Shown here: positions 6,301 through 50,266 of the stretch, piece by piece
Layout of the letters: every line of letters begins with the position of its first letter
Numbering within the stretch: the stretch's first letter is position 1
NCBI GenBank assembly: GCA_044227095.1
Contig: JBGAFV010000001.1
Coordinates: forward strand, 1,625,127-1,689,126
Reading direction: 5' to 3'
Origin: Chitinophagaceae bacterium
GTDB taxonomy: Bacteria > Bacteroidota > Bacteroidia > Chitinophagales > Chitinophagaceae
Length of the DNA stretch: 64,000 nucleotides
The notes under the pieces: generated by a model
Seen by the model: the letters and a program-made list of their open reading frames with translations, nothing else
Database searches by the model: none
Told to the model about the DNA's origin: nothing
Program-made: the position numbers and the translations under genes

Positions 6301-6548
6301 TCGCTAGTCGTTTGATGCAACAGAATTGATTTTTTGGAGCATACATTAGATCTGTATTCAACATCGTTGTGTCACTCACTTGTACTGCGGTAATACTGCT
6401 GATCAATTAATCGACCACTCCGCTTTGTCATGCTGTAATCATCTCGTGAAAATAGAACCGCAAGAATTGTAAGCAATAACATCATTGCCATTCCTTTACT
6501 ACCGACTACGAACTATCGACTCCTTACTCCCGACTGTCGACTCACGTC

Positions 6549-26625: not shown

Positions 26626-26868
26626 GCAAAGTGAACAAAGAGAAAAGGGAATCAATAGCGGGGAAATAAAAACGCATACTGCAGCTCAATAAATATATCT
26701 TGTACAAGTGTGCGACGCAACAATGTTGATAGCATTTAGGTGGTTGGTTCAAAAAAAAAATTAAGTTTTTGATGAGATGATTATCAAAAAGCGTAAAAGA
26801 TTTTACTTGAGAAATGCTAAAAGAAGATCATAGTAATTAATCCATATCTCCCCTTTAGGGGCGGGGGC

Positions 26869-29765: not shown

Positions 29766-29821
29766 TAAAAAATTATACCCGTAGTTTTTTAAAACTACGG
29801 GTATGCATGATTAAAACTCAT

Positions 29822-31267
29822 TTATTCACCTTCCACTGCATTTTTTTCTTTCTTCCATGATCTGTGTTTGGCGCCATCCATCTTTACAATTTTTGGCGTA
29901 AACCTTCCTACAATGTCTACCAAGGATTTCTGAGATTGCATTACTACTTCAATATCCTTGTACGCAAAAGGCGATTCGTCTAATCCGCCACCAAGCAGTT
30001 TTACACCAAACTTTTTCAGTTCGTCTTTAAACTGTTTATCTGTTACAGATGCAATGGCACGTGTACGGCTCATTTTTCTTCCTGCACCATGCGATGCAGA
30101 ATTTACAGATGCAGCCTCTCCTTTACCTTTTACAATAAAACCATCTGCCGTCATAGAACCAGGTATAATACCTAATACATCTTTGCCTGCAGGTGTAGCA
30201 CCTTTACGATGAACAATCACATCACGCCCTTCCCATTTTTCTTTCCACGCAAAGTTGTGGTGGTTTTCTACCATCTTCATTGCTTTACGCCCTAATTGTT
30301 TGGCTATCTTGGCATGTATTACATGATGACATGCAGAAGCGTAATCACCCGCAAGGTTCATCGCATTCCAGTATTCTATACCTTCTTCTTCATCTAAACT
30401 TAACCATGCAAGGTTTTTTGCTTCTTGTGGTAAACGTCTTTTGCTAATAGCCAACTTTGTATAGTGGTTAGCAATGTTTGCACCCAATGCCCTGGAACCA
30501 GAATGCGTTAGAAAACCAACATACTTTCCTGCACTAATACCAAGCATTGCATCTTTTTCTGCCACTTCAATAATACCAAACTCAGCAAAGTGGTTACCAG
30601 AACCAGAAGAACCCAATTGTTTCCATACACGGCCATGCATTTTCTTAAGCAATGGCAATTGGTAAAACAGTTCATTGTCCATCACTTCATGATCAGCTGC
30701 TCTATCAAACTGCGCACCGCTTCCAAATAATGTGGCTTCACTTAATTCTCTCGCAAAAAATGCTTCCTTGTCTGTAAGATCTTTTGGGTTGATATCAAAA
30801 ATACTTAAACACATTCTGCAACCAATATCCACGCCTACTCCATAAGGAATAACCGAGTTCTCTGTCGCCAGCACTCCACCTATCGGTAATCCATAGCCGC
30901 TGTGGGCGTCTGGCATTAATGCACCGGCTATACTCACGGGAAGTTTTGCTGCCTGGTACATCTGGTGCATAGCGCCTTCTTCAATATGTTCCTGCCCAAA
31001 TACATTAAACTGTATACCGTTTTGGTTCAGCGATATTTCTGCACCCTCTGTTGCAGCCTTAGGTATTAATTGCTGCGCAATCAAACCCAGCACAGCATCA
31101 TTTTCATATTCTACCGGCGCAGCCAGTATTTTTTTTAATAGTTCCATCACTTCTTCTTTTCCACTGTGTTTATAATTCTTTTCCATCACATTCATAGCAA
31201 TGCTTACTACCGGTCCTTCCGGGAAGCCAATTGCCCTGATTTCTTTTCCTGATATTTTTAGTTTCAT
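29822..31267 (-). CDS. rtcB: RNA-splicing ligase RtcB (3'-phosphate/5'-OH RNA ligase)
   Basis: Full-length 481 aa. Metal and GTP-binding motifs PDAHSGYG, GSGNHF, NHHNFAW, SHGAGR and the catalytic His region are present. Confidence 0.9.
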   Translation of the reverse strand: MKLKISGKEIRAIGFPEGPVVSIAMNVMEKNYKHSGKEEVMELLKKILAAPVEYENDAVLGLIAQQLIPKAATEGAEISLNQNGIQFNVFGQEHIEEGAMHQMYQAAKLPVSIAGALMPDAHSGYGLPIGGVLATENSVIPYGVGVDIGCRMCLSIFDINPKDLTDKEAFFARELSEATLFGSGAQFDRAADHEVMDNELFYQLPLLKKMHGRVWKQLGSSGSGNHFAEFGIIEVAEKDAMLGISAGKYVGFLTHSGSRALGANIANHYTKLAISKRRLPQEAKNLAWLSLDEEEGIEYWNAMNLAGDYASACHHVIHAKIAKQLGRKAMKMVENHHNFAWKEKWEGRDVIVHRKGATPAGKDVLGIIPGSMTADGFIVKGKGEAASVNSASHGAGRKMSRTRAIASVTDKQFKDELKKFGVKLLGGGLDESPFAYKDIEVVMQSQKSLVDIVGRFTPKIVKMDGAKHRSWKKEKNAVEGE

Positions 31268-31410
31268 ACCCCAACCCCTAAAGGGGCTATTTAAGTTTTA
31301 ATAATATTTTTTTTGATACCAGCATTTGTTTTCATGGCGGCATCGTTGTGTCACTCACTTGTATAGTAAATCAATTATCAACGCAGACACTTAAATTAAT
31401 AATCATTTTT

Positions 31411-31447
31411 ATTAACATCCGGCATCCTGTTAATGCCGGATGTTAAT
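31411..31447 (-). promoter_or_regulatory. 14-bp perfect inverted repeat immediately after the SPFH stop codon, upstream of rtcB
   Basis: ATTAACATCCGGCAT-cctgtta-ATGCCGGATGTTAAT. It is not followed by a clean U-tract, so it may be an attenuator or processing/regulatory hairpin between the SPFH gene and rtcB. Confidence 0.4.
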
Positions 31448-32554
31448 TTAACCATTCTTATTTGCCGGTACAAAGATCTGCTTCAACTGTTCTACCAAAG
31501 CACCGTTGCCACTTACACTGATATTACTGATTTTATCTGCAATCTTCTCTACGTATTCCATCTCTTTCAATTTCCACAACATCGCATTTTCTTCCATCAA
31601 TTTAGCAGTGTTTAGCAAACTACGGGTGCTGGCTGTTTCTTCACGGCGCATGATTGTATTTGCCTGCGCTTTCTTTTCTGCAATCAATACCTGGTTCATA
31701 ATCTCTTTCACATCGCCCGGCAAAATAATATCGCGTATACCAAAGCCGGTTACTTCCACACCCAATGCTGCAGCTTCGGCTTTTGCCCGCTGCAATATAT
31801 AAGGTGCGATGGTTTCTTTTTTTTCCAGCAATTCATCAAAGCTGAAACCGGCAATGTATTCACGCAAAGCCAATTGAAAGGCTACATACAATTGCTTGTC
31901 ATAGTCTTTGTTTTGCAACAAAGCTTTTTCAATGTCAGCCACTTTGTATTGCGCCCATGCATTAATACGCAAAGCCGCTTTGTCTTTGGTCAGGATTTCC
32001 TGGCCGTTTACTTCCAGTTGCTGCTGACGGATATCAACTTTGCCTACATGAATAGCGATGCTGTTCTTCCACCATGTATAAATGCCACTTTGCAAGGTTT
32101 GCACATACTTACCGTCTACAAACAATAGTGCTTTTTCATAACTCTCTACACTATAAGTACGCACATAGCCAATTACAGGCCGGCTCAACAAAACAGTGCG
32201 ATCAATGTTTTCAGTGATCTCAATCTTACTGATGTCTGCATGTACAAATTGGTAGTCAATCATTCCCTTCCAATATGTATAACGGCCGGCATTCAATACT
32301 AGCTTCAGCAAACCATTTTCGTATTGCAAAACAATTTCATTGTCTTTTACATCCACTACATGCAATGCATCAGCCAGCATAGTATCTTGCAAAAGAATAT
32401 TCAGTTCTATAGGAGCAACAAATGGTTTATTCAAGTCATAAACGATGGCTGTTTCATTCCACAACCAGTATTTACCTTCTTTCAGCATTCGCTGATAAGT
32501 TCCATTCTTAAACACCAAACCAACCTGGTAGGCATTTACTTTTACCTGTTTCAT
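31448..32554 (-). CDS. SPFH/band-7 (slipin/prohibitin-like) domain protein
   Basis: Band-7 core ...GFGIRDIILPGDVKEIMNQVLIAEKKAQANTIMRREE... plus an N-terminal extension. The start is at MKQVKV. Confidence 0.7.
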   Translation of the reverse strand: MKQVKVNAYQVGLVFKNGTYQRMLKEGKYWLWNETAIVYDLNKPFVAPIELNILLQDTMLADALHVVDVKDNEIVLQYENGLLKLVLNAGRYTYWKGMIDYQFVHADISKIEITENIDRTVLLSRPVIGYVRTYSVESYEKALLFVDGKYVQTLQSGIYTWWKNSIAIHVGKVDIRQQQLEVNGQEILTKDKAALRINAWAQYKVADIEKALLQNKDYDKQLYVAFQLALREYIAGFSFDELLEKKETIAPYILQRAKAEAAALGVEVTGFGIRDIILPGDVKEIMNQVLIAEKKAQANTIMRREETASTRSLLNTAKLMEENAMLWKLKEMEYVEKIADKISNISVSGNGALVEQLKQIFVPANKNG

Positions 32555-32937
32555 TTTCTTATATTTAAAGTTTTCAATTATTTGTAAAAAAGTCAGCACT
32601 GCCTGCACTCCGTAATCACGGAAGCGGGTTTTAGAAAATGTTTTTTGTAACAGTTTACCAGGGAGTGTTCGCCTGATAAAGTGAAACGAGCTGCATTCCT
32701 GCTGCCAGCCTGCAGATGCTTACTGAGTTGCACACTTCCAAAACTTTCCCTGTCAAAAAAGGTACTCGTTCTTTCAAGTCTTTCTTGCTGCATTGATGCA
32801 GCAAAAAAGAGTCATAGGCCGTGTGCCCGCAGGCAGCACCAACTTTTTTTATCTGGTCACCTTTTTTAAGAAGCGGTGGACTTCTCCTTTTGAAGCATTA
32901 TCAGTGCTTTGCTAGACCATTTAGCTTCACCGCCAAA

Positions 32938-33052
32938 GGCGATGACAGGATTCGAACCTGCATATTTCTGTTGCTCTACCACTGAGCTATTCCGTTTGCA
33001 ACGGAAAGAGGAATTGAACCCCTGACCCACAGGTTATGGAGGGCATTGCACC
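32938..33052 (-). ncRNA. candidate tRNA-mimic ncRNA (YrlA/Y-RNA-like tRNA-like module) upstream of the SPFH-rtcB genes
   Basis: The minus strand reads ...AGGGG-TTCAATT-CCTCT (T-arm) TTCCGTT-GCA-AACGGAA (acceptor-like 7-bp stem closed by a 3-nt loop) TA-GCTC-AGTGGTAGA-GAGC (D-arm with G18G19)... The ends GGTGCAATG / CATCGCC can pair. There is no anticodon arm. A second T-arm-like hairpin CAGG-TTCGAAT-CCTG lies near the 3' end. Confidence 0.45.
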
Positions 33053-33230
33053 ATTGAAATAACAGCATACAGAAAGTTTACTAACTCTGCACTATGGTGT
33101 TTTTGAAACACACATCCGGTTTACTGTCAACAGGCAGTTGCCCTTCTTGCCGTTAAGCAAGCTTTTGTGTTGAACTAGTCAACAATTTATTTATCTAAAG
33201 AATTTTCGGAGCATTGTATTATGGAAGAAG

Positions 33231-33962
33231 TTAATCATCCAGCCTATCCAAAATCTGCGGTAGCGGAATATTGTACAATGGATTTCTTTCCCTGTCTCTT
33301 TGTTCCCTGTAGCGCCATTTGTAACTATCACCTAAAATTTTAGCCTGACGTGCGTCATACTTATTCCATTCAAGGTAATTGCTAATTTCTTCGAGGCGTT
33401 TTTCAATGTCCACATCTTTTATCTTGATTTTATCAATTATGTTTGGACTTACACGCAATACAAAACGCCAGGGCTCATTAAAGACATATCTTTTAACCGG
33501 TTGCTTTTTCCAGTCATGCTCCCAAACCTCATGAAAACATTGCATTTCGCTATCAGAAAAGGCAAACCTTTTAAGCTCATATGAATATGGCTTTAGCAAC
33601 TGCTGCCCTTTAATAACATAGATCTTCCTTCCATACTTTCTTTTCCTGATGCGGAAGTCTTTTCTGTAACTCCAGGCGCTGGTATTTATTTTTTTCAAAA
33701 TAGCCTCAAAGAACTCTGCCTGTTTGCTTCTTGCTACGTCATCACGTAAAACAAAACAACGTTTCCATCCTTTTTGTACAGGTGGCAATAAGGGTTCCCA
33801 ACCTAAATTATTTTTTCTTGCCCACAACCCACGTTGTTCTTTCCATAATTGAATCAACTGTTTATCAAAATCTTTATACTGCATTCTTTTTTTCTGCCTG
33901 GCAGTACGCAGGCGGTAGCAGAGAATATCTTCTCCGTGCTGTTGAATAAGTTTTGTGTCCAT
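33231..33962 (-). CDS. hypothetical basic protein (243 aa, R/K-rich), no recognisable domain
   Basis: Clean ORF and ATG start. Its 5' UTR contains a D-arm-like hairpin GGTGCAATGGCACC (33990-34010). Confidence 0.5.
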   Translation of the reverse strand: MDTKLIQQHGEDILCYRLRTARQKKRMQYKDFDKQLIQLWKEQRGLWARKNNLGWEPLLPPVQKGWKRCFVLRDDVARSKQAEFFEAILKKINTSAWSYRKDFRIRKRKYGRKIYVIKGQQLLKPYSYELKRFAFSDSEMQCFHEVWEHDWKKQPVKRYVFNEPWRFVLRVSPNIIDKIKIKDVDIEKRLEEISNYLEWNKYDARQAKILGDSYKWRYREQRDRERNPLYNIPLPQILDRLDD

Positions 33963-34102
33963 AATGATTTATTTGGTTTCGATCGGTAACTCCGGTGCCA
34001 TTGCACCATTCCTTTCCGTATTGTCATTATGAACCCTGAAGTTTTTTTCATTTCGCTAAGGTTATTTTAATAAATTATTTTTAATCTTTCAGAAAGCTCG
34101 TT

Positions 34103-34588
34103 TCACTGCACCACTTTATTAGCACAGCTAGAACTTGCAAATGCTTCTGGCTTGGCTTTAAAAGCAAAACCCATCCCCATTATATAACCCATCGCTTCTT
34201 TCAAAGCATCATTGCTTTTAAAATTTGGATTGGTGTTGATATCGGCATGTACTTCCATTTCTACATCATATAAAGTGAATAGCCTGCACAATTCATAGGC
34301 AATGTCAATACTCTTCGATACTTCCAGCAACATCCTTTGCTTTATGCTCATCTTCTGTTGCGTAACTTCATTGCTGATATACATGAAACCACCTTTTCCT
34401 TTTCTTATAAAAACAATTACGGTTGCAAATTCTGTTTCCCGCCCTTTAACCTGGCTATCGGTACCAATACATACTTTCAAATCATTGCCCAATTGTTTTT
34501 CACGAACAATAGCCGAACGCACTTCATCAACAATAGATTGCTGCAACCTTTGTCCGTTCAGTTTTCTCCATTTTTGTTGCTGTTCCAT
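34103..34588 (-). CDS. YkuK/DUF458-family RNase H-like protein
   Basis: IGTDSQVKGRETEFATVIVF...NTNPNFKSNDAL resembles the DUF458 predicted RNase-H-fold nuclease. The start is at MEQQQKW, and the longer upstream extension overlaps tRNA-Phe. Confidence 0.5.
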   Translation of the reverse strand: MEQQQKWRKLNGQRLQQSIVDEVRSAIVREKQLGNDLKVCIGTDSQVKGRETEFATVIVFIRKGKGGFMYISNEVTQQKMSIKQRMLLEVSKSIDIAYELCRLFTLYDVEMEVHADINTNPNFKSNDALKEAMGYIMGMGFAFKAKPEAFASSSCANKVVQ

Positions 34589-34604
34589 TGTTTTGTTTTT
34601 AATG

Positions 34605-34679
34605 TGGTGCCTTAAGGAATCGAACCTTAATTGCTGGTTCTTCAAACCAGTGCAATAGAACCATCTCTGCCAAAGCACC
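34605..34679 (-). tRNA. tRNA-Phe (GAA)
   Basis: Manual fold: acceptor GGTGCTT/AGGCACC, D-arm GCAG...TTGC, anticodon stem CTGGT/ACCAG with loop TTGAAGA, T-arm TAAGG-TTCGATT-CCTTA, discriminator A. Confidence 0.7.
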
Positions 34680-34684
34680 ATTTT

Positions 34685-34776
34685 GTCTGAACCAGGATTT
34701 TGAAGGATTTTTTGGATTAATAGGATGTACACTTCTCTGCTAAATCTTTTAAATCATTTTAAATCCTGGTTTAGAT
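34685..34776. repeat. ~95-bp palindromic unit immediately 5' of tRNA-Phe (family also at 35110-35204, 35465-35637, 13040-13080)
   Basis: Terminal inverted repeats GTCTGAACCAGGATTTTGAAGGATTT ... AAATCCTGGTTTAGAT. Confidence 0.6.
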
Positions 34777-34876
34777 TTTTTTTGTTATTAACTGTAGTAA
34801 CACTATTAAGCATCGTTGCGTCGCACACTTCAGCTTTTTGTTATTTATTCATCATATCTCCCAATATAGTCTTCTT

Positions 34877-34948
34877 GCGGATGAAGAAAGGTTCGAACTT
34901 TCAACCTGGGGCTTAACAAGCCACTGCTCTGCCATTGAGCTATTCATC
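34877..34948 (-). tRNA. tRNA-Asn (GTT)
   Basis: Manual fold: acceptor GGATGAA/TTCATCC, D-arm GCTC-AATGGCA-GAGC, anticodon loop TTGTTAA (one mismatch in the anticodon stem), T-arm GAAAG-TTCGAAC-CTTTC, discriminator G. Confidence 0.6.
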
Positions 34949-34951
34949 CAT

Positions 34952-35025
34952 GAGTCGCGCAGAAGATTCGAACTTCTTTATTCCGGTTTGCAGCCGGATG
35001 CATACAGCCATGTCTGCCAGCGCGA
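34952..35025 (-). tRNA. tRNA-Cys (GCA), unusual D-arm
   Basis: Acceptor GTCGCGC/GCGCGAC, anticodon stem TCCGG/CCGGA with loop CTGCAAA, T-arm AGAAG-TTCGAAT-CTTCT, discriminator T. The D-region is 21 nt with a non-canonical stem. Confidence 0.55.
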
Positions 35026-35033
35026 CTTTTATT

Positions 35034-35109
35034 GTTGGCCCGGTGAGACTCGAACTCACAACTCCCGGTGTAAAAGACCGGTACTCTGCATCCAATTGAG
35101 TTACGAACC
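35034..35109 (-). tRNA. tRNA-Lys (TTT)
   Basis: Acceptor TGGTTCG/CGGGCCA (two G-U pairs), D-arm ACTC...GAGT, anticodon stem CCGGT/ACCGG with loop CTTTTAC, T-arm GTGAG-TTCGAGT-CTCAC, discriminator A. Confidence 0.65.
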
Positions 35110-35204
35110 AGTGTCTGAACCAGGATTTTGAAGGATTTTTCAGATTAATAAGATGTAAATTTTTCTGACGAATCTTTTTAATCCTTTTAAATCCTGGTTC
35201 AGAT
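35110..35204. repeat. ~95-bp palindromic unit immediately 5' of tRNA-Lys
   Basis: GTGTCTGAACCAGGATTTTGAAGGATTT ... AAATCCTGGTTCAGAT. It is ~85% identical to the 34685-34776 unit. Confidence 0.6.
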
Positions 35205-35211
35205 ATTTTTT

Positions 35212-35306
35212 GTACGACTTTCAGAATCGAACTGAATACGCCAAACTTATGTTTACCTCTCAGAAAGAGCAGGAAGCTTAGCATGTTGCCATTACACCCA
35301 GCCGTA
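35212..35306 (-). ncRNA. 95-nt tRNA-like element with canonical acceptor, D-arm and T-arm but no anticodon stem-loop (tRNA pseudogene or tRNA-mimic RNA)
   Basis: Acceptor TACGGCT/AGTCGTA, D-arm GTGT-AATGGCA-ACAT, T-arm TTCAG-TTCGATT-CTGAA. The 46-nt internal segment contains no 5-bp/7-nt-loop anticodon arm in any register (checked manually). Confidence 0.4.
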
Positions 35307-35309
35307 TTG

Positions 35310-35381
35310 GTTGACTTCGGGACTTGAACCCTGTTCTTCACATTCACAGTGTGACACTTTACCAGTTAAGCTAAAGCCAAC
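35310..35381 (-). tRNA. tRNA-His (GTG)-like, with G-1:C73 and irregular T-arm
   Basis: G-1 + TTGGCTT / AAGTCAA + C73 gives the 8-bp His-type acceptor. D-arm GCTT-AACTGGTA-AAGT, anticodon stem TCACA/TGTGA with loop CTGTGAA. The T-stem has only 3-4 bp (GGG-TTCAAGT-CCC). Confidence 0.5.
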
Positions 35382-35386
35382 GTTTG

Positions 35387-35459
35387 TTGTTAAGGATAGA
35401 TTCGAACTATCATCATCAGTGTCAAAGACTGATATGCTGAGCCATTGCACCACTTAACA
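35387..35459 (-). tRNA. tRNA-Gln (TTG)
   Basis: U1-A72 acceptor TGTTAAG/CTTAACA, D-arm GTGC-AATGGCTCA-GCAT, anticodon stem TCAGT/ACTGA with loop CTTTGAC, T-arm GATAG-TTCGAAT-CTATC. Confidence 0.7.
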
Positions 35460-35464
35460 ATTTG

Positions 35465-35637
35465 TCTTAACCACGATTCATAAGATTTATGGGATTGATA
35501 CGATATGTCTAACTAATCTTTTCAATCATTTTTAATCCCAGTTCAGACATTTTTCATATTTGGTTTAATGGTTCTGCACTCAATTTTTTTATTTAATCCT
35601 GACAATCCGTTTAATCTTACAAATCATGGTTCAGACA
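35465..35637. repeat. two degenerate copies of the tRNA-upstream palindromic unit, 5' of tRNA-Gln
   Basis: ...AATCTTTTCAATCATTTTTAATCCCAGTTCAGACATTTTT... and ...AATCCTGACAATCCGTTTAATCTTACAAATCATGGTTCAGACAATTTT. Confidence 0.45.
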
Positions 35638-35892
35638 ATTTTGGAAAAGCATCCCCGCTGCATCTCGCGGGGAGTGCTTATGTTCCTCCTTTCTGCAACT
35701 AATGATTTAGCCTCCTCCCGACCTCCTCCAATAGAGGAGGCCATCAACGCACAAGGCCAGCTTTTCACAAAGCCATAATTATTTTATTCTTTTTTTATCA
35801 ATTTACTGATCAGTTGAAGGGCAAACCGCATCATAAATACCATCACTATAAATTTCATTATGCCTGTTTTATATTTTTATAAAAGCGGGCAT

Positions 35893-35927: not shown

Positions 35928-36206
35928 ACGTTCAGCTGTGTAACACAGCTAATCATTACAATACCACGGTCGTATATTTTTATTATTTCTTTGCTCACCT
36001 ATGAGCATAAAACTCCTGCCTGTTTGCGCATACCAATAACATCCTGCTAATGTCAGCAGATTGTTGCTTGTCAGAATTATAAATCGTTTATGTTGTTTAT
36101 TTTTCGACATTTATATTTTTAAGTTTATAATTTTTTTATCACAGACCACTAAAAATCCTATCCTTCCAGGATATTTTTTCTCCCTTTCAGGGGTTGGGGT
36201 AACAAA

Positions 36207-36243
36207 TAAAAAACCCCGCAATCTCTTGCGGGGCTTATATTTC
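36207..36243 (-). terminator. intrinsic terminator-like hairpin (stronger on minus strand)
   Basis: CCCCGCAAtctcTTGCGGGG with a T-run on the minus strand. Confidence 0.45.
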
Positions 36244-37230: not shown

Positions 37231-37427
37231 GGAACGCTGATTTTTATGATTGTTAAGATGAACTATGATTTACTTCGTGCCAGTACTTAATTTGCGAATC
37301 TGCGCCCAAGGTTTTTTTCAATAGCGATTTGTTGTACAAGTGAGTGACACAACAATGTTTAATAGCGAACTGCTGCCTGCCAAACAAAAAATCTTACTAA
37401 TCATAATCATCATAAAAATCTGCGTTC
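37231..37427. repeat. MITE-like element with GGAACGCTGATTTTTATGATT / ATCATAAAAATCTGCGTTC terminal inverted repeats enclosing a TTGTTGTACAAGTGAGTGACACAACAA palindrome
   Basis: Located between the MurU-like and kinase genes. Both end modules match the 12771-12852 element. Confidence 0.5.
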
Positions 37428-45308: not shown

Positions 45309-46022
45309 TTAAAAACTAATTGACGGCATTTCGTCGTAAGTTCTTCCGCCTAACTCACGTCCTGCTTTCTTTTTATTTATGCCGCCCCATTGTTTAAAGA
45401 AAAAAGCAACACCTTGTTCGGAACATTGCTGGCGAATGTCCCAAACCCACCACTCTTGCATGGGTCTGGCTTTACGTCCACTTTCACCGCCAGTAATTAC
45501 CCAATCAATATTTTCAAGGTTCATGTTCATTAAAGGGCCTATCAGTGGTTCACAGGAAAGAAATTTTGTTTTGGCATTAGTCTTTCTCAAAAAATCAATT
45601 CTTCCTGCCACCCTTTGGTCTTCAACGGAAACACCCATCCATATGTTCTTAGTCCATGTAAGTTGTTCATGTAATTCAAAAAGTCGTTCTGCTCTTTTAG
45701 TTAATACCTGGTAAGTATGCTGTGGCGTATCATTCATCACTGCAAATACTTTTTTGATAAACTCCAGAGGAACCTCGGGATGAAATAAATCACTCATAGA
45801 ATTTACAAAAACAATTTTTGAACCTTTCCAACCATAAGGAATATCTATTGCATCATCATGCGTCCTTACAGCAAAACCATCTTTGTATTTTTCTATTCCC
45901 ATTGCTTCAAGACGCCGTGTCATTACTTCGGCATAACAATACTTACAACCTGCAGATATTTTAGAGCAGCCTGTTGTAGGATTCCAGGTCATTTCGGTCC
46001 ATTCTATGGAAGATTGTGACAT
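45309..46022 (-). CDS. phage Gp37/Gp68-family (DUF5131) three-Cys-motif protein
   Basis: N-terminus MSQSSIEWTEMTWNPTTGCSKISAGCKYCYAE is the Cx6CxxC three-Cys motif characteristic of PF07505. Confidence 0.65.
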   Translation of the reverse strand: MSQSSIEWTEMTWNPTTGCSKISAGCKYCYAEVMTRRLEAMGIEKYKDGFAVRTHDDAIDIPYGWKGSKIVFVNSMSDLFHPEVPLEFIKKVFAVMNDTPQHTYQVLTKRAERLFELHEQLTWTKNIWMGVSVEDQRVAGRIDFLRKTNAKTKFLSCEPLIGPLMNMNLENIDWVITGGESGRKARPMQEWWVWDIRQQCSEQGVAFFFKQWGGINKKKAGRELGGRTYDEMPSISF

Positions 46023-46024
46023 GA

Positions 46025-46303
46025 TTATTTAATTTTAATTTCAGAAGCGTTTTTAATTTTATGAATATCGGAACCTGTGAGTTTGAAATCTATAATTATT
46101 TTCCCTTCTTTATTTAAGTCCTTTAGAATGGTATTTGCATCTTTTAATAAAAACCCTTCTGATAAAGTGAATAAGTAAACTTCCACATCAGTTTTTAAAT
46201 TTCTGTTTAATATATCTTCTTTTAAAGTATTAGTGAATACCTGCTTTTGTTGGAACATTATATTCCTCAAAAAAACTTGGTTGATTAATATTGATTTTTT
46301 CAT
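46025..46303 (-). CDS. small hypothetical ORF between the TcmP-like and Gp37/Gp68 genes
   Basis: It ends 3 nt before the Gp37/Gp68 start and overlaps the 3' end of the upstream gene. Coding status is uncertain. Confidence 0.25.
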   Translation of the reverse strand: MKKSILINQVFLRNIMFQQKQVFTNTLKEDILNRNLKTDVEVYLFTLSEGFLLKDANTILKDLNKEGKIIIDFKLTGSDIHKIKNASEIKIK

Positions 46304-47108
46304 TGTCTATATCGAAATTTGCTTCGCCTGTTAATTTGTCGTGTTTCCAGCATACATGTAGAAATTTTTCAATTCCCAATGTGTGATTTGTTCCAAAAAT
46401 TAAACCATAAATACCACTAGGTTTTTTTATTGAAAATGGAGCTAAGAAATAGCTCTTTCGATCAGCTATTTTTGATCTATAGTAGTCTAAAACAAACCTA
46501 TGAATATGATAATAACTTTTTCCTTCTAGATCCTGCTTGTTGATTTTCAAATATTTTTTAAACTCCTCAACTTCCGAGAATCTTTTTATGTAAGACGATG
46601 AGATGAAGAATAAAAAATCTGTTTGCTTTAAACTAATTAATTTACTAAATACCTCTTCAGTTATTTGTTTTATGCCATTCTGGTCTAAGAATAAAAAATT
46701 AGCTGTTCTTTTCATTGTATCAAAATACTTATTGAATATTACTATGAAATCATCATTGTAGTATTCAATAACATATAGTGAATTGTCTGCAATTGAATTC
46801 AAATTATCAGTAAGTATGGTAAATTTATCACTGTCAAATTCATTGATTACTATTCGAATTTTTACTCTACTTTTTTTAATCAATTCTTTATTTTCATTGA
46901 GGATTGATATAATTCGCATAGGGCTACCGAAAGTGCCGTTAATATCTTTGCCTTCTCCAGCAAATAAGTCAAAAATTTGAATTTCAGACCATATGATTTC
47001 CTTTCTTGCAATAAATACCGGTAGCCATTCCTTAAAATAGTCTTCAAAAATTTTAAGTTTATCAATAGTCCCGTCATCAAACGGTTTTCGGAATAGGTTT
47101 CTTCCCAT
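46230..47108 (-). CDS. putative three-Cys-motif partner protein (TcmP-like)
   Basis: 292-aa product immediately upstream of the Gp37/Gp68-family gene, which is the conserved pairing. The call is by context and size only, since no diagnostic motif could be verified by eye. Confidence 0.4.
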   Translation of the reverse strand: MGRNLFRKPFDDGTIDKLKIFEDYFKEWLPVFIARKEIIWSEIQIFDLFAGEGKDINGTFGSPMRIISILNENKELIKKSRVKIRIVINEFDSDKFTILTDNLNSIADNSLYVIEYYNDDFIVIFNKYFDTMKRTANFLFLDQNGIKQITEEVFSKLISLKQTDFLFFISSSYIKRFSEVEEFKKYLKINKQDLEGKSYYHIHRFVLDYYRSKIADRKSYFLAPFSIKKPSGIYGLIFGTNHTLGIEKFLHVCWKHDKLTGEANFDIDNEKININQPSFFEEYNVPTKAGIH

Positions 47109-47150
47109 GGCAAGGTTTATAAGTTTATGCTAAGATAGAAACAATGTCCC

Positions 47151-48260
47151 TTAAAACAACTTCCCCTGCCCGCCCGGCACCCTGAATATGCTTGTATTCA
47201 AACTCCAGTCTTCTGCATTCATACCATAGAGCTTGCCGTATTTTTTATACTGCTGTGCTACCATTTGCGCAATATTCCCTTCACCCCGCATGCGTACGCC
47301 CCAGCGGGTATCGTTTACTTTTCCATCATGACTTTGTTCTATTAAATGCCACACCTTATCTGCACGGTCTGGAAAATTTTTATACAGCCAATCGTGAAAC
47401 AGTAATTTAATAGCACCATTTAAACGGATAAATGTATAAGCGGTAAACGTAGCACCATTATCTCGTGCGGCTTTCATAATGCGCTGCATCTCGTGTTCGT
47501 TTAGTCCGGGAATCATTGGCCCCATCATAATACCCATACGCACACCAGCATTGCTTAGTTCTTCAATTACTTTTAATTTTTGCTTTGCGGTAGTAGTGCG
47601 TGGCTCCATAACCCTGCGCAGATCTTCATTAAAAGAAGTAATAGATACCATGGCAGATACCAGTCGCTTCTTTGCCATTTCCTGCAATACATCTTTGTCT
47701 TTTAGTATCCAAGAGTTTTTAGTGAGTATGCCTACAGGCTGATTAAATTCGTTGCAAACTTCCAGCAGGCCTCTTGTAAGCCGGTATTTCTGTTCTGCAG
47801 GCTGGTAACAATCTGTGTTGCCGCTAAGCATTATAGGATAGCATTCATACTTCGGGTGCATCAGGTATTTGCGCAATAGCTGTGGTGCATTTTTTTTCAC
47901 TATTATTTTTTGCTCAAAATCCATTCCTGCACTGTAGCCCCAGTACTCGTGCACATTGCGTGCATAGCAATAAATGCAGCCATGCTCACAACCGGCGTAT
48001 GGGTTCATGCTAAAGCCCATGCCAACATCAGGGCTTTCTACTTTGTTTACTATCGTTTTAGATTCCTGTTCTATGTATTGTGTAGGCAATGCTGTTTCTT
48101 CCCATTCGTCAATGCCTTCAATATGTTCTTTTGTTACTTCGGTTTTTAAAAAACGGTTGCGTGTGTTTATTTGAGCGCCGCGGCCAGCATGGTATTGGGT
48201 TTGTTCGTCCTGGTTTTTTACAGCTACTTTATAGTGGTCTTGTTGCAGTTTGTCTGACAT
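47151..48260 (-). CDS. radical SAM protein, SplB-like DNA-repair-photolyase (PA0069) family
   Basis: CEHGCIYCYA is the CxxxCxxC motif with the family architecture. The start is at MSDKLQQD. Confidence 0.8.
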   Translation of the reverse strand: MSDKLQQDHYKVAVKNQDEQTQYHAGRGAQINTRNRFLKTEVTKEHIEGIDEWEETALPTQYIEQESKTIVNKVESPDVGMGFSMNPYAGCEHGCIYCYARNVHEYWGYSAGMDFEQKIIVKKNAPQLLRKYLMHPKYECYPIMLSGNTDCYQPAEQKYRLTRGLLEVCNEFNQPVGILTKNSWILKDKDVLQEMAKKRLVSAMVSITSFNEDLRRVMEPRTTTAKQKLKVIEELSNAGVRMGIMMGPMIPGLNEHEMQRIMKAARDNGATFTAYTFIRLNGAIKLLFHDWLYKNFPDRADKVWHLIEQSHDGKVNDTRWGVRMRGEGNIAQMVAQQYKKYGKLYGMNAEDWSLNTSIFRVPGGQGKLF

Positions 48261-48285
48261 GATTTCTAATTTTTTGTTTTTACAA

Positions 48286-48856
48286 CCACGGAGACAGGGA
48301 GGACACAAAGATGCACAGCGATTTTTTATACAGACCCGGAGGGGAGAAAAGTACACGGAGTTAGCATTAATTGAAGATCATTCGTTTGATTCCATCTTTC
48401 ATTAATGGAGTATGAAAGTTTAAAATATAGCCTAGGCGCTTGCCTGTTAATCTTAAATAACTTAATAATTGCGCTTCCCAAAGAATACAATAATCTTCCT
48501 GGGCTTTTAATTCAATAATAATTAAGTTGTCTATAAGAATACCAACCCGCAATCCACCTTCTATTATCATTGTTTCATAAACTATATTCACGCACTTTTG
48601 TTTTTCAAAAGGGATATTTCTTTTAGCCAGTTCGTAACAAAAACATTTCTCATAAATGCTTTCCAATAAACCAGCGCCTAATTTTTTGTGAACTGTAATG
48701 GCAATGTTTACAATTTGTCCTGTTAACCATCTTTCTCTTTCAGTAATAGGTTTAAAACCATTTTGCTGAATTTCATTTGTATCAGTTTTTAGCGTCATTT
48801 TCTAATAAAGTTTTATCATCTCCCTTTGCATCTTTGTGTCCTCTCTGTCTCTGTGG
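48286..48856. mobile_element. GxxExxY-gene cassette bounded by ~30-bp inverted repeats
   Basis: 48286-48315 CCACGGAGACAGGGAGGACACAAAGATGCA versus the reverse complement of 48827-48856, CCACAGAGACAGAGAGGACACAAAGATGCA (27/30 identical). A related fragment is at 50150-50190. Confidence 0.5.
48367..48798 (-). CDS. GxxExxY-family (PDDEXK_3-like) protein
   Basis: GAGLLESIYEKC contains GxxExxY. ~140 aa, which is typical of this family. Confidence 0.7.
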   Translation of the reverse strand: MTLKTDTNEIQQNGFKPITERERWLTGQIVNIAITVHKKLGAGLLESIYEKCFCYELAKRNIPFEKQKCVNIVYETMIIEGGLRVGILIDNLIIIELKAQEDYCILWEAQLLSYLRLTGKRLGYILNFHTPLMKDGIKRMIFN

Positions 48857-48864
48857 TTATGTCT

Positions 48865-49476
48865 TCACCCAAATAACTCACCCTGCTTTGTACTCACCGG
48901 CAAATTCATAAATTCAAAACGCCTTAATATCTGGTAAGGATTATCGCCCACCTGCCTTCTTAGCAAAAGCATACTGTCTGCAATAAAGCGACCGGTAAAA
49001 TGTTTCTGGCTGTATTCCAACCAGCCTTTTTCATATTGCCAGGGCAGCAGTTTACGTGCTACAGTAAGGTGCGGCTCGTCTATAAAATGTGGTTTGTTGT
49101 CTTTGTTCAGTTTCATTAACTGTTGAAAAGGGCGCATTTCTTTTACCAGGTTGCGTATAGGATCTTTGGTAGTTACATTTATAAAAATGGTGTGCGATGG
49201 AAAGCTGCCAAAATCTTTTAGTTCTACTTTAAAAGGATGATAGCCCATACCCACCGTTTTTAAGCGGTTAATAATGCGTTCTTCCATCATTGCGTACTGT
49301 AGAAAATTAACCAGTGTAATATGCGGCTTCCCCCAGCGGGCATTAGGTGCTTTATACGTTTCGTAAAAATCTTCTTTTACTTCTTTTATTTTATTGCGCA
49401 ATTCCTCATGCGGGTTTAGTACAAGCAGGTATTCATTTATTTTATAGCCGGGCAACGTAAGCGCTGATGGTTTCAT
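48865..49476 (-). CDS. 2H phosphoesterase superfamily protein (LigT-like RNA 2',3'-cyclic phosphodiesterase / 2'-5' RNA ligase family)
   Basis: Two H-x-T-x motifs (PHITLV and PHLTVA) spaced as in LigT. Confidence 0.6.
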   Translation of the reverse strand: MKPSALTLPGYKINEYLLVLNPHEELRNKIKEVKEDFYETYKAPNARWGKPHITLVNFLQYAMMEERIINRLKTVGMGYHPFKVELKDFGSFPSHTIFINVTTKDPIRNLVKEMRPFQQLMKLNKDNKPHFIDEPHLTVARKLLPWQYEKGWLEYSQKHFTGRFIADSMLLLRRQVGDNPYQILRRFEFMNLPVSTKQGELFG

Positions 49477-50055: not shown

Positions 50056-50266
50056 AGAAGCGAGCAATATTTTTTTAGCCAAACAGTTGCGCACTATTCA
50101 GCATTGTTGCGTCGCACACTTGTACAGTATATCAGCAGGCGAGTTTTTTTGAACCACAGCGACACAGAAAACACAGAGAAGCACGGAGCTTTGATCAACG
50201 CATTGTATCATATAAGCAAATGCTATGTGCTTATATTTTTCTATGATTCTATGTGGTAAATAATTT

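Follow-up and report, generated by a model that had tools for sequence, protein, structure and literature searches.

Most RtcB ligases are bacterial, but beyond the enterobacterial rtcBA-rtcR operon little is known of what they act on, which cofactors they use and how they are regulated. We describe here an RtcB-encoding island from a Chitinophagaceae bacterium (GenBank assembly GCA_044227095.1, contig JBGAFV010000001.1, positions 1,625,127 to 1,689,126), in which the ligase gene is grouped with tRNA genes, a structured RNA and accessory protein genes. The 64,000-nucleotide stretch that was analysed is referred to as the window, and coordinates are those of the window unless another locus is named. 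The closest described class is the combination of a Band-7 protein, a predicted tRNA-like RNA ('b7a-tRNA') and RtcB that was predicted by Burroughs and Aravind (Nucleic Acids Research (NAR), 2016), known to us through the papers that cite it (bioRxiv 10.1101/312249; PMC6514570). According to the first of these, the same study found YrlA occasionally beside Band-7 and put forward the idea that Band-7/b7a-tRNA and Ro60/YrlA are interchangeable, both acting as ligase cofactors. As of 2018 the b7a-tRNA was without experimental validation (bioRxiv 10.1101/312249), and there is no mention of it in later papers of the literature searched.

Other systems share individual features with the island. In Salmonella, Rsr, the Y RNA YrlA and RtcB are encoded together in the rsr-yrlBA-rtcBA locus (Chen et al., 2014, PMC4201824). 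In cyanobacteria, including Anabaena, long tRNA arrays lie beside rtcB or are co-regulated with it, and a role as replacement tRNAs or as a sponge during translational stress has been proposed for them (Santamaria-Gomez et al., 2021, PMC8421152). A charged protein without homologs, which has highly charged helical regions and for which rRNA binding has been suggested, accretes onto RtcB-PrfH systems (PMC6514570). An RtcB-type ligase is also part of the maturation of permuted tRNA genes in Cyanidioschyzon merolae and some archaea (PMC3978253), and an SPFH gene, that is, one of the Band-7 type, is found within the rtc locus of Pseudomonas (PMC13086221).

The region in the window is a chromosomal island of the Band-7(SPFH)/tRNA-like-RNA/RtcB class, in an extended form specific to Bacteroidota. 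Read along the minus strand, it begins with tRNA-Gln, tRNA-His, a 94-nt tRNA-like element, a hairpin repeat of about 100 nt, tRNA-Lys, tRNA-Cys, tRNA-Asn, a second copy of the repeat and tRNA-Phe, and continues with genes for a DUF458 protein and for a basic 243-aa protein (P243), a non-coding stretch of 676 nt, the SPFH gene, a 15-bp hairpin and rtcB. Terminator-like hairpins delimit it at 35652-35673, on the array side, and at 29775..29804 (minus strand), where the second closes the island beyond the 3' end of rtcB. ARAGORN, Rfam and Pfam recovered the elements that a first-pass annotation had listed here, each where it had been placed and all co-directional on the minus strand. The suggestion made there that the module is undescribed did not survive comparison with the literature, since the Band-7/b7a-tRNA/RtcB combination was predicted in 2016, as reported in bioRxiv 10.1101/312249, and a link between tRNA arrays and rtcB is documented in PMC8421152. 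As in that class, so far as the citing papers portray it, a tRNA-like non-coding RNA (ncRNA) precedes the SPFH gene with RtcB nearby, RlaP occurs in related loci, and SPFH with its RNA is interchangeable with Rsr and Y RNA. Unlike the class as cited, the window lacks RlaP, which is frequent there but not universal, and adds the tRNA array, DUF458 and P243. Measured against those partial descriptions, the class is already known, and the elements that appear novel are the Bacteroidota configuration of tRNA array, DUF458, P243, RNA, SPFH and RtcB; the fidelity of P243 to RtcB across system types, its homolog in a phage array and the resolved RNA structure likewise appear to be new or undocumented in the papers compared. 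The island is a compact, 5.7-kb version of the class in which every part is defined; it provides a covariation-supported structure for an associated RNA that has no Rfam family and a physical link between putative spare tRNA genes and repair enzymes, and it yields concrete reagents and predictions with which bacterial survival of tRNA-cleaving toxins can be studied.

The SPFH-associated RNA has a conserved structured core of about 330 nt (32858..33185, minus strand), recognised by sub-threshold Rfam matches, by covariation and by a score of 140.8 bits with the covariance model R1. With this model the 12 cognate RNAs score 91-144 bits, and every related locus in which the 5' part of the SPFH gene survives, 11 in number, has a homologous RNA upstream of that gene; locus L004, which has a 3' SPFH remnant only, gives no R1 match above 60 bits. 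Conservation in an alignment of the 12 sequences extends over about 330 nt, and of the 69 pairs that RNAalifold predicts, 52 have compensatory changes. A core structure of 36 pairs in eight helices was in addition specified by hand and compared with controls in which the pairing partners were slid by 1-3 columns, and with 500 shuffles. It leaves 95.7% of cells paired, against 38-48% in the slid controls, and shows double changes in 28 of the 36 pairs; none of the 500 shuffles reaches the observed values.

The structure begins with a multi-helix 5' domain (about 33185-33040) containing the invariant CUGUAUGCU, followed by two tRNA-like bodies, both within 32890-33036. Body 1 consists of a CUGU strand, a variable-loop-like GGGUC (5 nt), T-arm 1, a closed acceptor-like hairpin (7 bp in the window), UA, D-arm 1 and ACAG; it is closed by pairing of CUGU with ACAG, has no anticodon loop and, as in YrlA, is a tRNA with the anticodon loop as its point of circular permutation. 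Body 2, which runs from T-arm 2 through a second closed acceptor-like hairpin (again 7 bp in the window) and D-arm 2 to a complete anticodon arm, is a tRNA permuted at the variable loop. An H-type pseudoknot completes the 3' end of the core (32858-32885), with an AGAAG/CUUCU stem, an A-rich loop and a loop-tail pairing that covaries in six different versions. The RNA is no simple tRNA look-alike, having a 5' domain, two tandem permuted bodies and a pseudoknot. Like permuted tRNA genes (PMC3978253), it places the 3' half before the 5' half and closes the acceptor stem by a loop, but no bulge-helix-bulge motif or splicing endonuclease is evident and body 1 in the window is without an anticodon loop. 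Two other readings of the 3' part were tried and rejected. The Rfam 'tRNA' at 32871-32934 requires an acceptor stem, GGCGGUG/CACCGCU, that can pair in the window only, whereas covariation pairs GGCGGUG with an upstream CAUCGCC in the closed hairpin; a preQ1-I riboswitch at the pseudoknot has no Rfam match at E<=1 and no L2 loop. Between the core and the SPFH gene, a conserved hairpin (UUCCGUGAUUACGGAA) and a CUUUAUUU tract stand 40-90 nt upstream of the SPFH start (32560-32660 and the equivalent positions in 10 loci); together they possibly form an attenuator or the 3' end of the RNA.

The relation of this RNA to the Y RNAs deserves comment. Rfam matches YrlA to 32936-33054 at 40.2 bits (E 2e-7), under the RF02553 gathering score of 69, and the next 64 nt to its tRNA model at 33.1 bits, without a T-arm. 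The YrlA cutoff is not discriminating here, as the Rsr-adjacent Y RNAs of related loci all fall below it too; because none of those in L010, L035 and L020 reaches it, Rfam can be said to under-detect Bacteroidota Y RNAs. As in the Salmonella locus, body 1 has the order T-arm, closed acceptor-like hairpin, D-arm, and the RNA is near RtcB. Unlike that locus, the window has no RtcA or RtcR and no Rsr or TROVE protein (tblastn with the Rsr of L034 gives nothing below E 5 in the 64 kb), and the Ro-binding stem motif GYCGUAGA..UUACUUCG is absent from it. The position of the 3' partner of the Y stem is taken by T-arm 2, so that the strand closing the Y stem of YrlA is replaced by the second tRNA-like body. 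With neither Rsr in the window nor a Ro-binding stem in the RNA, the latter is an SPFH-associated counterpart, not a Ro-type Y RNA, contrary to one way of taking the earlier label of candidate Y-like RNA. When R1 was run on loci that encode Rsr, composites of Y RNA and tRNA in L035 and L020 scored 65-80 bits, the Y RNA of L034 scored 47.5 bits and tandem tRNAs scored lower. This pattern is compatible with descent from dimeric tRNA transcripts, the origin put forward for YrlA (bioRxiv 10.1101/312249). R1 matches weakly to slipin loci of E. coli (E 0.2) and Subdoligranulum (E 0.001).

A genome scan with P243 returned 36 loci, all from Bacteroidota (Chitinophagaceae, Cytophagales, Chryseobacterium, Flavobacterium, Parabacteroides and Bacteroidales). 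RtcB is encoded on the same strand within 10 kb of P243 in 27 of the 36, and of the RtcB neighbours in Bacteroidota P243 is the most faithful. Fifteen of the pairs are directly adjacent; in 13 of these, -25 to +30 nt separate the genes, and four pairs overlap, the signature of a co-translated pair. DUF458 neighbours P243 in 15 of the 36 loci, an AAA ATPase accompanies it in 14, and same-strand arrays of 3-15 tRNAs are found with it in 16, in most of them immediately upstream of the protein genes. As the links of P243 with RtcB, of the RNA with SPFH (all 11 related loci with the 5' part of the SPFH gene) and of the array with P243 recur across Bacteroidota, the arrangement is not unique to this strain, and a strain-specific explanation, which neighbourhood analysis had been suggested to decide, is refuted.

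The loci fall into types according to what accompanies P243 and RtcB. Ten related loci resemble the window in having a full-length SPFH gene, and two (L002 and L004) retain remnants only. Four (L010, L020, L034 and L035) encode a relative of Ro60, the TROVE domain being confirmed by Pfam for L034; all four are without SPFH, no Rsr was seen in the SPFH-bearing loci or the window, and SPFH with its RNA and Rsr with Y RNA are thus mutually exclusive. Each Rsr-type locus carries two to six copies of RNAs with the 5' motif GYCGUAGA..UUACUUCG among its tRNA genes (16 motif occurrences in total), which on the strength of that motif are read as Y RNAs. Tandem stretches of three to six copies, interleaved with tRNA genes, occur at 7650-8500 in L010, 7760-8900 in L035 and 6040-8400 in L020. 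In a third type, found in 10 loci of Chryseobacterium, Flavobacterium and Bacteroidales, P243 and RtcB are followed by PrfH, with nucleotidyltransferase-like and tetratricopeptide repeat (TPR) genes where these were examined. Further RNA-repair genes are added at the same place in relatives of the island: RlaP (PF10127), present as a gene pair in seven related loci, an ATP-dependent RNA ligase (PF09414), a kinase/HD protein and HEPN/AbiV, and also Fic. RlaP has no tblastn match in the window, nor does the window hold the RNA ligase, HEPN/AbiV or Fic of related SPFH-type loci, and because these are missing it represents a minimal version of the SPFH-type locus. Beyond Bacteroidota, the gene order in a Firmicutes locus (Subdoligranulum) is an RNA with two T-arms and a closed hairpin, SPFH, RtcB and RlaP, and that in E. 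coli is an RNA with a T-arm and a closed hairpin, SPFH and RlaP. Some E. coli have the slipin and RlaP-like nucleotidyltransferase genes; in the example L039 (pSTEC639_1, 611-614 kb), they lie between a DUF3811 gene beside rluF and lysC; the T-arm and closed hairpin are within the 530-nt region upstream of the slipin, where no RNA is annotated.

P243 itself (33231..33962, minus strand) has no match in Pfam, NCBIfam, PDB, PHROG or PADLOC. It is strongly basic (22.6% K+R, net charge +21) and has 450 close homologs in a 90%-clustered collection and 814 representatives at E<=0.001 in a 50%-identity library, nearly all of which are stand-alone proteins of about 245 aa. Across 61 diverse members, G65, R68, L89, N93, F103, F143, R22, R26, K34, Q120, W165 and R166, together with several hydrophobic positions, are invariant or nearly so. 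The conserved set is thus made up of hydrophobic residues, R/K, N and Q, and no constellation of conserved Asp, Glu, His, Cys or Ser is present among the 61, which, as far as residue conservation can tell, speaks for binding or an adaptor function and against catalysis. The earlier proposal that P243 is a candidate RNA-binding partner is accordingly plausible in terms of composition and conservation. The family, with at least 814 representative clusters, tracks RtcB across the three system types and is found in one phage tRNA array. The phage homolog (L041, 7974-8639; IMG/VR UViG_3300033121_001080, an 81.5-kb contig), matched by hhalign with 99.6% probability (E 4e-24), sits between tRNA-Asn and tRNA-Arg within an array of 25 tRNAs and is independent support for a tRNA connection.

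The other proteins of the island belong to recognisable families, in agreement with the first-pass assignments. RtcB, the 3'-phosphate/5'-OH RNA ligase (29822..31267, minus strand; PF01139 at 4.7e-80; phrog_1075), is full-length at 481 aa, and alignment to RtcB structures in the PDB shows that all metal- and GMP-binding motifs are intact (DxxC, GSGNHF, HSGSR, NHHN and SHGAGR). Its gene has SPFH and a GNAT/Sua5 pair as neighbours, and no domains of the RtcA cyclase or the sigma-54 activator RtcR are found beside it or in the scanned open reading frames (ORFs) of the window. The SPFH/Band-7 ('slipin') protein (31448..32554, minus strand; 368 aa; PF01145 at 8.4e-31) carries, apart from the SPFH match, an N-terminal domain of about 130 aa and has no predicted transmembrane helix or membrane anchor (maximum 19-residue hydropathy 1.19). 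The homolog search returned close relatives only, 78-89% identical across many Chitinophagaceae; distant ones, 37-41% identical, came from a plasmid collection and include proteins of E. coli, Burkholderia and Subdoligranulum. DUF458 (34103..34588, minus strand; 161 aa; PF04308 at 1.7e-37; phrog_11311) is a YkuK-type, RNase-H-like predicted nuclease. Directly after the SPFH stop codon is a perfect hairpin without a U tract (31411..31447, minus strand; -25.4 kcal/mol, z -7.8), noted previously as a 14-bp perfect inverted repeat; the repeat is perfect and in place, and its stem measures 15 bp. It is possibly a terminator, an attenuator or a processing signal. The rtcB gene starts 180 nt beyond the SPFH stop, and in relatives the interval between the two genes ranges from 0.1 to 4 kb, usually with other genes in it.

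Taken with what is known of the protein families, the gene context leads us to favour, with moderate confidence, the view that the island is a tRNA-centred RNA-damage response system, in which RtcB reseals cleaved RNAs, SPFH and its RNA form a scaffold or cofactor, P243 partners RtcB as an RNA-binding protein, and spare or decoy tRNAs come from the array. Anticodon nucleases and other ribotoxins would cut tRNAs to leave 2',3'-cyclic-phosphate and 5'-OH ends, which RtcB would reseal. A soluble SPFH oligomer and the adjacent RNA may serve as scaffold or cofactor of the ligase, the role played elsewhere by Ro60 and Y RNA, and this scaffold would contain an RNA body shaped like a tRNA opened at the anticodon loop. 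P243, which is basic and probably no enzyme, would bind RNA and work with RtcB. The upstream array would supply replacement or decoy tRNAs of species that ribotoxins typically target (Gln, His, Lys, Cys, Asn and Phe), and the DUF458 nuclease may trim or process RNA ends. Several observations weigh against this reading. The structure model of P243 has a predicted TM-score (pTM) of only 0.50. P243 also partners RtcB-PrfH systems, whose known target is 16S rRNA and not tRNA. RlaP, RtcA, RtcR, archease and any sensor are all absent from the window, as judged from scanned ORFs or tblastn. Finally, because a strong hairpin and a dispersed repeat intervene between SPFH and rtcB, the two genes may be separate transcription units.

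A reading that need not exclude the damage-response system, and to which we allow a minor though real chance, is that the RNA acts in cis as the leader of the SPFH mRNA, sensing damage or tRNA status, instead of as a trans-acting scaffold. The RNA is always directly upstream of SPFH and co-directional with it, conserved blocks, among them the hairpin and the CUUUAUUU after it, extend past the pseudoknot until about 40 nt short of the SPFH ATG, and no canonical terminator is predicted between RNA and SPFH. However, the pair of closed acceptor-like hairpins, each of 7 bp, recalls substrates of RNase P, a likeness drawn from M. smegmatis YrlA as described in bioRxiv 10.1101/312249, and cleavage there would free the RNA from the mRNA. 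Moreover, L002 keeps the RNA beside a truncated SPFH, and the equivalent Y RNAs of Rsr-type loci are free-standing, among tRNA genes.

The PrfH-type loci raise the question of whether the module instead repairs or rescues damaged ribosomes, with RtcB and P243 resealing cut rRNA and the charged helices of P243 binding it. Relatives of P243 stand directly upstream of RtcB-PrfH in Flavobacteriia and Bacteroidia, as in the RtcB2-PrfH module (PMC6514570; PMC9304027), these being the 10 loci mentioned above, and from description and context only we infer that P243 is the published unknown protein 'RFR'; the suggestion of rRNA binding for the homolog-less protein with highly charged helices (PMC6514570) points the same way. 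Unlike that module, the window has no PrfH (no tblastn match), no TPR protein and no such nucleotidyltransferase, and its RtcB scores 144 against a cutoff of 271.8 for the PrfH-type NCBIfam TIGR03073. The partners encoded locally are tRNAs and tRNA-like RNAs, and the phage homolog of P243 has no RtcB or PrfH within 8 kb of its place in a tRNA array. Ribosome repair is an unlikely function for the island in the window.

More speculative, and distinctly unlikely, is an active role of the conserved RNA as bait or sensor, which, jointly with SPFH and P243, would catch nicked tRNAs or anticodon nucleases and pass them to RtcB, or else its processing by RNase P and RtcB as a bacterial permuted pre-tRNA, P243 being in either case a new class of tRNA-binding RtcB cofactor. 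The idea of a bait rests on the canonical anticodon loop of body 2, with its variable 'anticodon', and on body 1 as a mimic of an opened tRNA. Of the 11 sequences read, 10 have U33 in this 7-nt loop (CUGAUAA in the window) and all have a purine at position 37, and the 'anticodon' differs among genomes (GAU, UCA, UAG, AAG, GUU, GAG and GUA). If true, P243 would define a cofactor class common to the Band-7, Ro60 and PrfH repair systems and to a phage tRNA array.

The members of the array are tRNA-Gln(UUG) (35386..35459), which is the first and scores 65 bits with the Rfam tRNA model, tRNA-His(GUG) (35309..35381; Rfam 50.5 bits), tRNA-Lys(UUU) (35034..35110), tRNA-Cys(GCA) (34952..35026), tRNA-Asn(GUU) (34877..34949) and tRNA-Phe(GAA) (34604..34679), which ends 15 nt before the DUF458 start codon; all are on the minus strand and were found by both ARAGORN and Rfam. 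Its six tRNA genes in 856 nt reach the density but not the number that define a tRNA array unit (at least 20 tRNA genes at no fewer than 2 per kb; Tran et al., 2015). Like the cyanobacterial arrays (PMC8421152), it is linked to rtcB; unlike them (up to 43 genes), it is short, is joined to DUF458 and P243 and carries a structured element that is not a tRNA. The count of seven tRNA or tRNA-like genes given at first resolves into these six tRNAs and one tRNA-like RNA, and the gene called 'His-like' is a normal tRNA-His with G-1:C73 and an encoded CCA. The tRNA-like element (35213..35306, minus strand), previously given as 95 nt, is real and 94 nt long; neither ARAGORN nor Rfam scores it as a tRNA, and a further seven genomes conserve it in the position directly following tRNA-His (nhmmer E 1e-12 to 7e-10). 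Its cloverleaf-like fold comprises an acceptor stem of 7 bp, a canonical T-arm and an extended arm of 10 bp that ends in an invariant hairpin, CCU..UUCUUUCUGAAAGG, and RNAalifold finds covariation in 13 of the 28 pairs. The arrays of L001-L009 otherwise resemble a minimal set of one tRNA per amino acid, and they include members that are unusual for bacteria, namely tRNA-Ile(UAU), tRNA-Ile(AAU), a SeC-like tRNA(UCA) and some without a determined anticodon.

Repeats are prominent in and around the array. The long-hairpin repeat of about 100 nt, TCTGAACCAGGATTT ... AAATCCTGGTTCAGA, is inserted between tRNA genes (35112..35213, fold z -9.4; second copy 34684-34785; half copies 35508-35554 and 35616-35642), and its end motif occurs 12 times in the window where 2 are expected; such repeats look like miniature inverted-repeat transposable elements (MITEs) or repetitive extragenic palindromic (REP) elements. 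A 21-nt dispersed intergenic repeat, AAGTGNGNGACRCAACGATGC, lies inside an element of about 80 nt that ends in GGTAnCAAAAAA. It has six copies in the window against 0.02 expected (6361-6381(-), 26706-26726(+), 31340-31360(-), 34810-34830(-), 37338-37358(+) and 50101-50121(-)), one of them between SPFH and rtcB and another within the tRNA array, and there are many more in other Chitinophagaceae loci. That it is an operator common to the array and the upstream region of rtcB was considered and rejected, since it is dispersed, on both strands and at many unrelated positions elsewhere. An inverted pair, CCCYTTNAGGGGTTGGGGTA, at 31255-31286 (-) and 36182-36213 (+), brackets the segment from array to SPFH, and one copy is immediately next to the start codon of rtcB; L012 and L005 have a similar small hairpin ahead of rtcB. 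As terminal inverted repeats the pair was rejected, there being two copies only, 15 of 100 shuffles reaching 2 matches at 2 mismatches, and rtcB lying outside.

MITE-like hairpins and dispersed repeats within an array are among the features that speak for the cluster having no integrated cellular role, as a phage remnant or as cargo carried by a mobile element. RtcB and DUF458 also have phage families, one homolog of P243 is encoded within a phage tRNA array, the arrays range in content from 3 to 15 tRNAs, and the flanking genes are common to few loci and rearranged. Against such an origin, the window ORFs that were scanned include no integrase, transposase or phage structural gene, ordinary metabolic genes flank the island, IMG/VR holds only one viral contig with a P243 relative, and the 78-89% identity of SPFH across many Chitinophagaceae fits long vertical residence, so that we regard it as improbable. 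That the tRNA genes are an ordinary housekeeping operon and a chance neighbour of unrelated genes is very improbable indeed, for although all six appear functional (Rfam 50-65 bits, with correct identity features in His and Gln), the juxtaposition recurs in 16 genomes with varying tRNA content, and the arrays include the non-standard Ile(UAU), Ile(AAU), SeC-like and undetermined genes, the conserved 94-nt RNA and, in Rsr-type loci, interspersed Y RNAs.

Outside the island, a 2H phosphoesterase of the LigT type is encoded at 48865-49476 (PF13563 at 5e-17), about 17.6 kb from rtcB, in keeping with the 18 kb noted at first. Orthologs with 51-72% identity lie on the same strand 5-9.5 kb upstream of P243 in eight genomes (L002, L004, L007, L008, L009, L014, L019 and L020); the association is loose though recurrent, and shared ancestry alone may explain it. 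Beside the phosphoesterase gene, at 45309-48798, a DUF5131 gene, an unassigned 292-aa ORF, a radical-SAM gene and a 143-aa ORF form a compact-looking cluster.

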